Source: a virus. Taken from it: DNA of 64,000 bases. Shown one piece after another: positions 1-4,545 of the stretch. The stretch lies in the IMG/VR virus record IMGVR_UViG_3300027902_000006, positions 1 through 64,000 of that record. One strand, 5' to 3'. A program made the translations under genes and the position numbers. The number at the start of each line of letters is the position of its first letter. The stretch's first letter is position 1. The notes beneath the pieces were generated by a model that saw nothing but the letters and a program-made list of their open reading frames with translations, was not told where the DNA came from and did no database searches.

Positions 1-33
1 CTAGCCTCCCTGTCCCTTGCCTCGGGTGCTGCC

Positions 34-231
34 TCAAAATTCGAGGTGAGCTGCATCCGCTTTTCCCAAGATTAAGTGCGCTTTCTCTAGCCACTTTGCT
101 CGCCCTGCGAGATTGCCATTTGGTGAGAAGGCCCAGGATGGGGTTCCGGCCCCAAAAGGAGTTTGAAGTCCTCTGCGTACATCCTGCCTCCGGGAGCTGG
201 CAAAGCCCCGCTTTTTTGGCTGATATGGCAT
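34..231 (-). CDS. hypothetical small protein (possible early gene)
   Basis: 65-aa ORF starting inside the GT/AC-free stretch 181-347; AGGGGG just upstream; no recognisable motif. Confidence 0.35.
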   Translation of the reverse strand: MPYQPKKRGFASSRRQDVRRGLQTPFGAGTPSWAFSPNGNLAGRAKWLEKAHLILGKADAAHLEF

Positions 232-347
232 TGCCCCCTGAGAGATGGAATAGAATCATGGGCTAAAGCTATCATATCCCCCAGCCCTTGCATATCAGGC
301 TTTCCCTGATTTTTCAATTTTTTTTCTAAGGGATATCCCCTAGGGGC
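181..347. other. GpT/ApC-free island 1
   Basis: Read base by base: no GT or AC between the GTAC at 177-180 and the AC at 348-349. Confidence 0.9.
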
Positions 348-436
348 ACCCCCTGGATTGCCTGTTATACGAATAGATGATTACCTTTACATGAACTGAA
401 ACTATTATATGAACTATTACCACGTTACTTCTATCA

Positions 437-606
437 TTCCCCTGTTTCCCCTGGTTGTATGCGTTGTATGCGTTGTATTCCCCTGTTTCCCCGTATCTCC
501 GTTGTATTCGTTGTATTCCCCGTTGTATGCGTTGTATGCGTTGTATTCCCCGTTGTATTCCTAGTATTCCTTAGTAGGGGTTGTATCCGTTGTATTCCCC
601 TGTTTC
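437..606 (+). repeat. GTTGTAT-core degenerate tandem repeat (~11 copies)
   Basis: GTTGTAT followed by GC, TC or TCCCC, interspersed with CCCCTGTTTCCCC. Confidence 0.9.
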
Positions 607-838: not shown

Positions 839-2130
839 GGTGCTTTTATGTTTCGTGTATATCAGTATGTATTTAAGGAAGTGCGTCTTAGGGGAGCTGG
901 GAGTATGTTTATAGGTAAGTAAGTCCCCCCAGGCACAAAGACTTAGTATACTTAGCTATGTGGGGACTATATGAAACTGACTCCCACATCAATTAAAATC
1001 GGGTATTACGGAGTACTCCTGAAACTTGATTTACTTTGTTTGTGCGTGGTTCGGAGTTTAGAGATGGAAGTTTACCCGTACCGAAAAACCTCATTACACT
1101 TGCGGTATCTATTAAACTTTAATATCTTGTGATACAGGAACGCTGTTTATAGGTAAGTAAGTCCCCCAGCGCTTAATACTTACTTACGGTGCTCCAGAAG
1201 GGACGACATACACGCACTTTGCTACTCGCTATTGAAATTATACTATTGCGTTCTATGACAGAGATTCGCGTATCTGTTTATCTATAACTGTCTTCGCTTC
1301 GTCATAGTCTGTCTTAGCGTCCTTGAGACTTACGCTAAAAGGGCTATTGCATCTAGTACATTCGTAATGCAATATAGGTTGCTCAGTTAGTTCTTGGAGC
1401 ATAATAACCCTATTGTGGTATTTCTCAGGAATCCGTCCCCGGTATATCCACGTGTGTACCGTAGACTGATCTACCCCAAGTATTCTACCGATCTCACTGA
1501 TACTTAAAACGCCTGAAACTAACCATTTCAACATATACGTTCTCCCATGCAATAGTATTATTTCTCTACTGAGTATACAAGTATTTGATTGATGCAATAG
1601 AGTTATCTTATCATAGTTTGAGTGGGTATGCAATTCCTATATCGCATAGAATTTTTACGTATACGTACCACGTACGTAAGTACGTATCGCAAGACACACG
1701 TCGGATACACCTATTTTGTCTTTCGTAGTACGTTTGTATATAAATAAATAAGTAAGTCTTCTACAGAAAGGAACATACGCTAGGACGTACCTACTTACAT
1801 CGCCCCAGAAGCACCCTGTAAGTTTCTACGTATGTAAGTAAGTCCCCCAGCGCTGGAAACTAACTCAGAGACGAACATACTTACACCCACTGGGGACGTA
1901 CAAACTTACACGACAAAAAACAACAGTCGGATACACCTCTTTTGTGTTTCGTGTATATCAGTAAGTCAGTCGGTCGCCGTTGGAATGAGGTGCTTTTGTG
2001 TTTCGTGTAGCTAAGTAAGTAGGGGGTTCCCCGATGTCGGGCTGGGGAGTTCCCCTAGGTCGTAAGTAGGGGGTTCCCCGATGTTTGAGTAGGGAGTCCC
2101 CTTAGGGTGTCCCCTGTAAGTAAGTATGTC
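839..2130 (+). repeat. dispersed direct repeats in a largely non-coding region
   Basis: GTAAGTAAGTCCCCC near 915, 1153 and 1834; TGTTTCGTGTATATCAGTA near 849 and 1945; GTCGGATACACCT near 1700 and 1926; GTAAGTAGGGGGTTCCCCGATGT at 2015-2037 and 2062-2084. Confidence 0.8.
1253..1534 (-). CDS. helix-turn-helix DNA-binding protein with C-terminal CxxC
   Basis: ISEIGRILGVDQSTVHTWIYRG HTH pattern; start moved to ATG 1534 (GGGAGA RBS upstream). Confidence 0.7.
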   Translation of the reverse strand: MLKWLVSGVLSISEIGRILGVDQSTVHTWIYRGRIPEKYHNRVIMLQELTEQPILHYECTRCNSPFSVSLKDAKTDYDEAKTVIDKQIRESLS

Positions 2131-2133
2131 CCC

Positions 2134-2192
2134 CAGCGTTTCCCTGAGGTTCATGTCAGCGTTTCCCTGAGGTTCATGTCAGCGTTTCCCTG
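2134..2192 (+). repeat. 23-bp tandem repeat x2.5 (CAGCGTTTCCCTGAGGTTCATGT)
   Basis: copies start at 2134, 2157 and 2180 (partial). Confidence 0.95.
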
Positions 2193-2499
2193 CGTCTCGT
2201 CTCGTCGCGTTCGTCTCGTGCGTCGCGTGGCGTGCGTCTCGTCGCGTCCGTCTCGTCGCGTTCGTCTCGTGCGTCGCGTGGCGTGCGTCTCGTCCCGTCT
2301 CGTCGCGTCCGTCTCGTCGCGTCCGTCTCGTGGCGTGCGTCTCGTCGCGTCGCGTCTCGTGGCGTCTCGTGGCGTCCGTCTCGTGGCGTCCGTCTCGTTC
2401 GTCTCGTGGCGTCCGTCTCGTGCGTCTCGTGGCGTCCGTCTCGTTCGTCGCGTGGCGTCCGTCGCGTTCGTCGCGTGGCGTGCGTCTCGTCCCGTCTCC
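2182..2499 (+). repeat. adenine-free (CGT-N1-2)n low-complexity array
   Basis: 318 nt with no A on the + strand; units CGTCT/CGTCG/CGTGG/CGTG/CGTC/CGTT, roughly 65 units. Confidence 0.95.
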
Positions 2500-2603
2500 A
2501 TAGGGGCGTTCCCTTAGGGGCTGGCCCCCAGAGCGCCCAGGGTGTTCCCCTAGGGAAAAGCCCGATAAAAAAATTGAATTTTCGATATAAATTCCTGGCC
2601 TAT

Positions 2604-2622
2604 ATCAAGATCCATGCCAAGC
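2604..2622 (-). promoter_or_regulatory. leftward sigma54-like element (GCTTGGCATGGATCTTGAT), non-canonical -12
   Basis: shares GCTTGGCATGG with the rightward promoter; GG-N10-GA instead of GG-N10-GC. Confidence 0.35.
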
Positions 2623-2777
2623 CCGCAAAGCAAGCAATGGCGCAGCTTTCCCAAAAGGGGGCAAAATCTAGAAAAAAATAATATCAAAATGAGAAAATAG
2701 CTATATATCTAGCCATCTAGCGCCCACCCCCCAGCCCGCAAAGCAAGCAATAGCTAGGGGCTGGGGAAAAGGCGCGC

Positions 2778-2795
2778 TTGGCATGGCCTATGCAA
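2778..2795 (+). promoter_or_regulatory. sigma54 (-24/-12)-type promoter TTGGCATGGCCTATGCAA
   Basis: GG(2780-81)-N10-GC(2792-93) with TGGCA core, about 50 bp upstream of the likely ATG at 2846. Confidence 0.6.
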
Positions 2796-2845
2796 TAGAT
2801 AAGGGCAAGATGCAAGCATATCCCAAAAAAAGGATGGAAAAGAAA

Positions 2846-3277
2846 ATGGCAAAGCAGATTAAGGCGCAGGAGATTCTGGCGGAAGCGGCTGCTGATTATC
2901 AAAGCGGCTTGGCAATGGAAGCGGCCCAGATGGATTATCAAGCTGATATGCGCCGCGAAGCGGCCCAGCTTGAGGAAAAGGCAGCAGCAGAGCGGCAAGC
3001 GCGAGAAGCGGCAGCCATCAAAATTCTGCCCCAGAATAAGAGCGGCCGCGGCAAGATGGGCAGCAGATTCTTAGCCAATGGGAAAAGCGAAAATGGATTC
3101 TTGCTCTCTGCGGGCAGCGGCCAGATTGATAAAGCCTATATGGAATATAGGAGAGGGAAGGGGCGCTTCCCGAGCATGGCTGAGGCTGCTGCCATGCTTG
3201 CCCCCCTTGGCCTATCGGAAAAGGATATCCTTATCCATATCCGATTCTATCAGCGGCATAGGGGGCTTTATATCTAA
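2846..3277 (+). CDS. Val/Thr-free hypothetical protein: coiled coil plus possible C-terminal winged HTH
   Basis: ORF track gives 2783..3277; the 2783 ATG lies inside the promoter, so 2846 (AAGGATGG upstream) is preferred; C-terminal GRFPSMAEAAAMLAPLGLSEKDILIHI resembles LexA-type wHTH; perfect hairpin follows. Confidence 0.75.
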   Translation: MAKQIKAQEILAEAAADYQSGLAMEAAQMDYQADMRREAAQLEEKAAAERQAREAAAIKILPQNKSGRGKMGSRFLANGKSENGFLLSAGSGQIDKAYMEYRRGKGRFPSMAEAAAMLAPLGLSEKDILIHIRFYQRHRGLYI

Positions 3278-3288
3278 GGAATAGCCCC

Positions 3289-3332
3289 TAGGGGAAGCCC
3301 CGATGGAGGATCGGGGCTTCCCCTATCTCTTT
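3289..3332 (+). terminator. perfect 16-bp hairpin, probable intrinsic terminator
   Basis: TAGGGGAAGCCCCGAT-GGAGG-ATCGGGGCTTCCCCTA followed by TCTCTTT. Confidence 0.7.
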
Positions 3333-3579
3333 GCCCTAATTTCTAAGGGTTTCCCCTAAGCAGTTCCCCTGACCCAGCCTAAGAGTTTCCCCTATCCTAT
3401 CAGGAGTCCCCTTAGTATTCTTCTAGGGAGTTTCCCCAAGTATGTGCTAGGGGAGTCCCCTATGTTGTGTAGGGGAGTCCCTGATAGCCAAATCCGAGTT
3501 TCGATGTGGCCCCCGGCAACATAGTACCTCAGTAAGTTGTTTGCGTCTGGGAAAACTTTCTCAAGTGCTCAAGTGCCCC

Positions 3580-4545
3580 TCACAAGTCAAGAGGAAACTG
3601 ATCCAATTGTTTATACGATGTGCTCTTCGTAACCATAGGTCGGTTGCGACATTGCGCCCCACAATACTTATGCTTTTCCCAAGTGTATTCTTTTTCATAA
3701 CGTTCTCTACCGAAAGGATTTCCACAGTTTTGACAGTACTTTATCTCAACGTATCCCAACTGATCCCGATACCTCTTACCGGAGGTCTTCATTTTTCTGC
3801 TCTTAAGTGATCTACTTAGATTACGTCTATGTTCTATAGAAAGCGGTTTACCTTTATGTCCTTTCGAGTAGTTTAGTTGAGAAAGGCTTTGTTTCTTCTT
3901 GTGCTCTTCTGATGTAACTAGAACTCTACCGGCACAACGCCGACAAAGTCCAGTCTTGCCTACTGCATGGGGAACTAACTTGCCGCAGTCTTTGCACCAG
4001 AATATGATACTGTACATCTTACGATTAGCGTCTTTCCTACACTTGTCACTACACCAACGACGTTTTTCCCAAGCTACCTTTCCCTTTCTACGACAGTTTC
4101 CAAAAACCTTTCCGCAGTAGTCGCAATATTTAATCTCTGTAGAGGTTCGGTAGAACAAGATTAATTGATCTCGGTCTGCTTGACTAAGTTCACTTCCGCC
4201 AGATAGGATATTAGTTAAGCAACCTCCATCCGCTTTGCGTCCGTAGAGAGCAATGATCCTCTCTTCTAAGTCATATGCTTCTTGTTCGGACAAATTAGAG
4301 GTATAAATTGTCTCTTCAAAATCTAAACCACGGTCCCAGAGGTAGTAGATTACATTTATTTTATGGGGGTTGTCTATGAAACGTAGATCTTCGGTTCTTC
4401 GAAACTTCTTAGCCTGTTCCCTATGGTTTTTGAGCCGTTGTTGTTGTCCCTTTCCAACATAGAAAGGCATTGATTGTGTAGAGTCAAGAGGATCGACTTG
4501 ATCGGGTCTCCGTAAGATATAAACGTAATGAACATTTTTAGTCAT
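3580..4545 (-). CDS. GIY-YIG (LEM-3-like) homing-type endonuclease with Zn-finger and NUMOD3-like motifs
   Basis: YVYIL...PFYVGKG...R..H; repeated YCxxCG..F..WCSxxC motifs; LSIEHRRNLSRSLK. Confidence 0.75.
   Translation of the reverse strand: MTKNVHYVYILRRPDQVDPLDSTQSMPFYVGKGQQQRLKNHREQAKKFRRTEDLRFIDNPHKINVIYYLWDRGLDFEETIYTSNLSEQEAYDLEERIIALYGRKADGGCLTNILSGGSELSQADRDQLILFYRTSTEIKYCDYCGKVFGNCRRKGKVAWEKRRWCSDKCRKDANRKMYSIIFWCKDCGKLVPHAVGKTGLCRRCAGRVLVTSEEHKKKQSLSQLNYSKGHKGKPLSIEHRRNLSRSLKSRKMKTSGKRYRDQLGYVEIKYCQNCGNPFGRERYEKEYTWEKHKYCGAQCRNRPMVTKSTSYKQLDQFPLDL

Follow-up and report, generated by a model that had tools for sequence, protein, structure and literature searches.

A second, gene-less GT/AC-free island near the left end of a phage contig and a candidate DNA mark at GT

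A non-coding stretch of 168 nt near the left end of a contig from an uncultured phage (positions 180–347) contains neither GT nor AC, and the reading that we favor, with a probability of roughly 45%, is that it represents a leftward control region that may be kept as plain DNA because the phage would mark GT/AC elsewhere in its genome. The window analyzed here covers the initial 64 kb of one viral contig of 140,478 bp that is classed as linear in IMG/VR and is about 92% complete according to CheckV. Since this non-coding stretch has been purged of GT/AC as cleanly as the gene cassette in a right-hand island of the same contig, the constraint concerns the DNA itself and not a protein or its codons. 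The purge, combined with the exemption of GT/AC-containing palindromes from avoidance, provides a sequence-only guess at the target motif of a modification enzyme (GT in the present case, with a DpdA-like protein as the enzyme), and hypermodified phages may need small control regions of “plain DNA”. Neither idea was found described in the literature that was searched.

The left island and its surroundings

The clean run is bounded by an AC step at 179 and another at 348, and the observed number of GT and AC steps within it is 0 against 20.5 expected (Poisson P(0) 1.3e-9), while not one of 200,000 shuffles was free of both. Its base composition is ordinary (A35 C46 G37 T50). An earlier note, made from the letters of the window alone, had described 181–347 as devoid of GT and AC and positions 1–180 as depleted (about 11), and had argued that such an independent repetition of the right-hand island speaks against chance. 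These statements hold throughout, since the clean run spans 180–347, positions 1–180 contain 9 GT and 2 AC, which is half of the approximately 22 expected, and both islands have the same compositional signature in addition to the low probability given above. This signature consists of AT and GC steps at 1.4–1.8 times their expectation, which is what the removal of AC and GT by transitions would give.

Ranked by length, the GT/AC-free gaps of the whole contig (140,478 bp) begin with 623 (2726–3349), 182 (2544–2726) and 169 nt (179–348), followed by one of only 57 nt. A search for more islands, as the note had proposed and as carried out here within the contig, thus returned only the two halves of 2545–3348 and the stretch 180–347, and no further GT/AC-free island. 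With the exception of simple arrays, nothing comparable was seen for other dinucleotide pairs across the contig.

The right island (Table 1) holds a sigma54-like element (2779–2794), a gene of 143/164 aa whose product contains no Val or Thr, and a terminator (3289–3325). The note had also described the sequence between the islands as rich in GT/AC, and this is indeed the case, with 231 GT and 121 AC in 349–2543 compared to 12 per 100 nt in the rest of the genome. Within this core, positions 679–2135 contain 4–7 copies of a 16–35-nt repeat unit in which a C-run is combined with the word TAAGT in duplicate, as well as three copies of a 41-nt repeat that ends in a T-rich and GT-rich tract. These repeat families, which surround a gene for a 126-aa HTH protein (1253–1633, − strand), may represent an origin, signals for packaging or promoters specific to the phage. 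The + strand of 1–347, 437–606 and 1951–3518 has many GT and almost no AC (4 in approximately 2.1 kb). The bias is seen on either side of each island. On the + strand, both outer flanks contain GT but hardly any AC, a same-strand pattern that none of the explanations considered below accounts for, whereas a mirror pattern would be expected if the two units were mirrored. A 321-aa protein with GIY-YIG and zinc-ribbon (DUF2256) domains, likely a homing endonuclease, is encoded (3580–4545, − strand) between the right island and a small-terminase-like gene; the related contig L065 has different genes at this position.

Table 1. Features in and around the two GT/AC-free islands (positions in the window)
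Feature	Position	Strand	Description
Left flank	1–179		9 GT and 2 AC (half of expected), nearly all GT on +; reaches contig end
Left GT/AC-free island	180–347		168 nt, non-coding, ordinary base composition
Hairpin and T-run, terminator-like	294–326	+	6-bp stem; T-run is the complement of A8-TTGAA
Composite border module M2	312–356	−	Order in the direction of the island: CCAGG, two GGG/CCC boxes, A8, TTGAA
Palindromic box	326–343		CTAAGGG, 4-nt GT-free spacer, CCCCTAG; repeat family D8
GTTGTAT-type array	437–606	+	GT only on + strand, no AC; families D3, D9, D14
CGT-type array	2182–2499	+	About 90 GT, no AC on + strand; families D1, D2
Composite border module M3	2537–2579	+	Partner of M2; upstream edge of right island
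Right GT/AC-free island	2545–3348	+	Single AC at 2726
Box, module M4	3343–3359		3′ edge of right island; first post-island GT in its spacer

Border modules, orientation and contig ends

The shared border, described in the note as an inverted motif, has two components, namely palindromic GGG/CCC boxes and an A-run-TTGAA. Both strings quoted for it are exact, and the composite is present only at these two places in the contig. A search of the window for box-N8–16-A7-TTGAA found it exclusively at 313–346 (−) and 2547–2578 (+), with 0 expected in shuffles, and the part A5+-TT(T)GAA is likewise restricted to the two border sites across the contig. The last GT or AC before each purge falls within the spacer of the outer box both times (348; 2542 and 2544), as had been claimed. 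The boxes are concentrated in the first 3.6 kb, which holds 11 of the 15 sites with the loose form GGGG-N2–6-CCCC and all four full boxes by the strict definition. Boxes are found at the 3′ edge of the right island as well, and in the contigs L065, L077 and L080 they cap the homologous cassettes on either side; their spacers are GT-free inside the islands and GT-containing outside.

The divergent orientation that the note assigned to the two islands stands in one part and not in the other. An A-run-TT(T)GAAT that follows a box array is found on the upstream side of the cassettes in L077/L078, L079/L080 and L073, 130–300 nt before a conserved TGGCAT-N5-TTGCA element, and the inverted copy at 312–356 is thus of the upstream (“start”) type and points left. 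The box part, on the other hand, caps 3′ edges as well. Because the boxes are palindromic, 319–353 (+) is 83% identical to 3267–3301 (+) (family D8), and chained alignments of the left with the right island reach similar scores in both orientations (z 3.1 vs 3.5). The + strand also has a hairpin (294–310), with a stem that includes three G-C pairs, followed by T4-CAA-T8, and the whole element (294–326) can be aligned with the 3′ ends of both the right island and the L065 cassette, while the terminator scan yielded four sites vs 3.3 in shuffles, i.e., no excess. With boxes at 3′ edges and a hairpin and T-run on the + strand, similarity alone leaves the orientation unfixed, and the left border on this strand may be read equally well as a terminator with boxes of the 3′ type.

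The conserved TGGCAT-N5-TTGCA element resembles a sigma54-type −24/−12 promoter and is located about 50 nt upstream of the cassette gene in four lineages (2779–2794 in the window, with the variant ATGCA; L065 530–545; L077 425–440; L080 3616–3631), and a sigma54-like GG-N10-GC element is also found in L078 and L079. A perfect copy that faces leftward is additionally present in L065 (225–210) and L077 (158–143). Neither a sigma54 activator nor a sigma70 region 2 was found in the contig, and a search for a T7-type RNA polymerase found none in the contig, with the control of that search silent too.

The left island itself contains no credible ORF, as the short reading frames across it overlap one another in every frame and look unlike proteins, and no gene starts inside it. 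With the A-run and TTGAA read as a promoter with an UP element, a sigma70 −35/−10 pair with a spacing of 16–18 bp was not found, only three of the six −10 consensus positions being matched 17 nt past TTGAAA, and there is no −10 hexamer at 16–19 nt from the partner site at 2573 or from its equivalents in L077 and L080. A sigma54 GG-N10-GC element in a TGGCAC/TTGCW-like context is absent from both strands of 1–360, no Rfam family matched the island, and its RNA folds no better than shuffles on either strand. Without an ORF, a −10 hexamer at a fixed spacing, a GG-N10-GC element, an Rfam match or a fold signal, the claim that the left island is a transcription unit is without support.

Furthermore, the two physical ends of the genome are not joined in the assembly as the note had supposed. 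Base 1 is the end of the contig, and the gene at the opposite end (139842–140478, − strand; L001 5842–6478) is truncated by the contig end, where its homology stops, and misses its first approximately 45 codons. Since this gene is cut by the contig end, base 1 is neither a join nor the terminus of the genome. Closure of a circle by an ORF that runs from window position 56 across the junction to 139842–140478 was rejected, as no part of the contig codes for the approximately 45 conserved N-terminal residues. Either the apparent continuity at the junction is a chance open frame, or the ends are separated by a gap of at least ~135 nt (the missing codons). The truncated gene belongs to a family of at least 138 proteins of 260–297 aa from phage-like and metagenome contigs, in which no Pfam domain is found and the conserved motifs recall those of glutamine-synthetase-like amidoligases. 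A homologue of the gene at 138.7 kb lies just upstream of TerS in the relative L074, a synteny that gives a weak hint that the two contig ends might be neighbors, in which case the left island would head the leftward arm. The assemblies of the phage and its relatives (L065, L073, L077 and L078) all break at cassette borders, probably because of the repeat arrays.

Evidence for a mark at GT

A test for the avoidance of six-base palindromes was applied to the whole contig, with a maximal-order Markov model for the expectation and an observed/expected ratio below 0.4 as the definition of strong avoidance. None of the 16 palindromes that contain GT/AC is strongly avoided vs 15 of the 48 lacking this step, among which five are absent (9–17 expected) and another is seen only once (28 expected). 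The exemption of GT/AC is the strongest among the ten dinucleotide steps (GC-stratified permutation p < 2e-4; 0.008 for TA). In phage CAjan, palindromes with and without GT/AC are avoided at equal rates (4/16 of the former), so that the exemption is specific to the phage studied here. The known GA motif of CAjan was not recovered, which leaves the test without a positive control. The exemption points to a protective mark that would be placed at GT/AC and that the islands could not receive.

The contig encodes FolE, QueD, QueE and QueC as well as QueF, all five of which meet or come near the curated cut-offs, together with a DpdA-like ORF of 275 aa (genome 98587–99414) that matches PHROG 887 (“queuine tRNA-ribosyltransferase”) with E = 3.6e-47; searches with the Pfam TGT model and against NCBIfam and PDB sequences returned no match for the latter. 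Within the deazaguanine cluster, a ParB-N protein is encoded between queC and folE. Adjoining the DpdA-like gene is one for a 194-aa protein (genome 98006–98590, − strand; L070 14006–14590) that matches the “DNA methyltransferase” PHROG 24333 (E = 3e-54) and might further modify the inserted base. A gene of the Mom family is also present (PF25680, E = 3e-29).

Phages with this deazaguanine gene set contain dPreQ1-type bases in their DNA (PMC10516641), and the mapped DpdA motifs, GA in one case and GA and GGC in another, consist of a G and its 3′ neighbor (PMC10484667, PMC7544227). The phage studied here has the set of DpdA-like, FolE, QueD, QueE and QueC genes together with QueF in common with the DpdA phages CAjan, iggy, phiSM, VH7D and HVTV-1 (PMC7544227, PMC10484667, PMC10516641). 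The known motifs cover about 1/6 to 1/4 of G, and GT contains 27.7% of all G in this phage, where the mark is predicted from sequence. As a G with its neighbor, the candidate motif GT would resemble them in kind, and no report of GT as a DpdA motif was found in the literature. The literature found also describes no motif-free islands in DpdA phages and nothing relevant on dinucleotide-free early regions, and CAjan (DpdA motif GA/GGC) has no GA/TC-free island. As CAjan lacks such an island and its GA motif was not recovered in the palindrome test, motif-free islands are not a general trait of DpdA phages.

The Mom protein of phage Mu forms 6-NcmdA at SAS sites (PMC13219725), and both the Mom-family gene of the contig and the fact that AC makes up half of the SAS core are reminiscent of this system. 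Unlike in Mu-type Mom avoidance, SAG-type sites occur at normal density in both islands. SAS sites have been kept, with 11 in the 168 nt of the left island and 42 in the 804 nt of the right island, and a Mu-like Mom specificity therefore fails to explain the purge. A further precedent is offered by the first-step-transfer region of T5 and the early region of T7 with Ocr, where DNA at the leading end is without certain restriction sites. The likeness lies in a discrete stretch by early functions that is kept free of sequence relevant to a nuclease or a modification; however, T5 and T7 lack specific 5–7-bp sites in the DNA that enters first, whereas here a whole dinucleotide is missing and the left island is gene-less.

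Relatives and competing explanations

The cassette protein family is small, with six clear members and one weak partial match in 1.8 billion representatives. GT/AC-free cassettes are found in the studied phage, of which L073 (JGI sample 3300003861) is a second assembly, over at least 803 nt, in L065 over at least 1,260 nt and in L077/L078 over at least 1,117 nt. The TerL of L065 is 78–79% identical to that of the studied phage, and the cassette protein only 29%; that the purge has been kept at this low identity is counted in favor of selection. Three other members of the family contain Val and Thr. Among these three, DNA was available for L079/L080, whose cassette has an ordinary GT/AC content and yet shares the boxes and the A-run motif as well as the sigma54-like element and the terminator. 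According to the note, an occurrence of the motif without depletion, coupled with a lack of early transcripts from both islands, would have spoken against its interpretation, and this is in part what was found, as in L079/L080 the motif heads an unpurged cassette, which places the motif with the cassette and separates it from the purge. Judging from these sequences, the purge is lineage-specific, persists as the sequence diverges and is separable from the motif. No island was seen within reach in the TerL relatives MW202621, MW202657, L004, L064, L066, L067 and L074.

Under the interpretation that we prefer, the phage would mark GT/AC throughout its DNA and thereby protect it from restriction. 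The likeliest mark would be a 7-deazaguanine (preQ1-type) that replaces the G of GT and is inserted by the DpdA-like enzyme. The 7-position of G would thereby receive a bulky group lying in the major groove, the side from which most DNA-binding proteins contact DNA, whereas islands without GT on either strand would stay ordinary in the packaged genome and could be read by host proteins on entry. The right island would then be a full cassette and the left island a control region only, i.e., a short, gene-less mirror image of the control region that precedes the right-hand cassette, with both flanking the 2.2-kb repeat-rich core. The left island would face the long arm of leftward genes, of which the last one preserved is located at the other end of the contig. 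We infer the position of the mark at GT, DpdA as its writer, the role of the island as a leftward control region and the hindrance of reading by the mark, and the link of the putative mark to GT is circumstantial. Against this explanation count the results for CAjan, the lack of a match to the Pfam TGT model, the absence from the left island of a −10 hexamer at a fixed spacing, a sigma54-type element and a gene start, the equally good reading of its border as a terminator with boxes of the 3′ type, the same-strand pattern of the outer flanks, and the homologous cassette of L079/L080, which works unpurged.

Several other explanations merit consideration. The left island could instead be the tail of a rightward unit or encode a short rightward RNA, with the hairpin at 294–310 and the T-run as its terminator and the boxes as a 3′ cap like that beyond the terminator of the right island. 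Such a reading, which we regard as unlikely though not far-fetched, is in agreement with the terminator-like site on the + strand, the identity of 319–353 to 3267–3301, a 10-nt block and the box that a three-way alignment shows to be shared with the right island and L065 at their 3′ ends, a TGGCAT word at 226–231 (+), and a + strand that is nearly AC-free over 1–347 as it is over 1951–3518 around the rightward cassette. However, the yield of terminators equals that of shuffles and the stem has only three G-C pairs, no correctly spaced rightward promoter, ORF or fold signal (z +0.95) was found, and the A-run-TTGAA is a feature of the 5′ side in four other cassettes. The boxes might also be the functional element themselves, bound by a dimeric DNA-binding protein (which might be the 143-aa product of the cassette, the 126-aa HTH protein encoded in the core or the ParB-like protein of the deazaguanine cluster), in which case the left island would be GT-free ground between sites and act as an operator or insulator, or else as an origin or a region for packaging, and not as a transcription unit. 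The clustering of the boxes in the first 3.6 kb and at the cassette edges here and in L065, L077 and L080, the difference between spacers inside and outside the islands, the HTH gene in the core and the ParB-N protein between queC and folE would fit this rather unlikely alternative, but the left island has a clear box pair at a single edge, the second candidate at 132–168 being weak, and the absence of GT/AC from the 130 nt between the boxes would be left unexplained.

The islands and boxes together could alternatively constitute a modification-sensing switch that times divergent leftward and rightward programs, a possibility that we consider doubtful. Boxes in the islands, with their GT-free spacers, would never be marked, and boxes outside would be marked at the GT of the spacer in packaged DNA and unmarked in fresh replicas, so that one box-binding protein could tell parental from new genomes; the dense one-strand GT arrays would serve as heavily marked barriers beside the boxes. 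An explanation without any mark of the phage is that the island reflects the avoidance of restriction in DNA that enters first near a physical end, by escape from host nucleases whose sites contain GT/AC. The location 180 nt from the contig end, the breaks of the L065, L073, L077 and L078 assemblies at cassette borders, the precedents of T5 and T7 and the heavy avoidance of palindromes, which indicates that restriction pressure is real, are consistent with it. We nevertheless find it improbable, because hexamer sites with GT/AC are not avoided elsewhere, the opposite of what would be expected unless a mark protects them, because the removal of a whole dinucleotide far exceeds known sets of sites, and because the contig end cuts a gene and is no true terminus, while repeat arrays can explain the assembly breaks. 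Lastly, the left island might be a decaying and functionless partial duplicate of the upstream region of the right cassette, in line with the weak and patchy similarity to the right island beyond the border and the lack of a gene or promoter. This is highly improbable, since 168 nt of neutral DNA that has diverged so far would regain GT/AC (20 expected), whereas the purge is perfect and the border defined.

When relatives were sought by exact matches to the border motif, 3 viral and 52 metagenome loci came up, every one of which was rejected as a chance occurrence; two of these have GT/AC-free runs that are plain low-complexity DNA rich in CT or AT. The 29-mer at the left end had no match in viral contigs, and no close locus emerged from scans with peptide patterns of the cassette protein, of the gene at the right end or of TerL. 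Among the close homologues of TerL, P0125, P0127 and P0130–P0132 carry inteins with Hint and intein-splicing domains, and the TerL of the studied phage is intein-free. The purged L065 cassette and the unpurged L079/L080 cassette coexist in one sediment sample (JGI 3300009506), and they form a natural pair for asking which genes accompany the purge.
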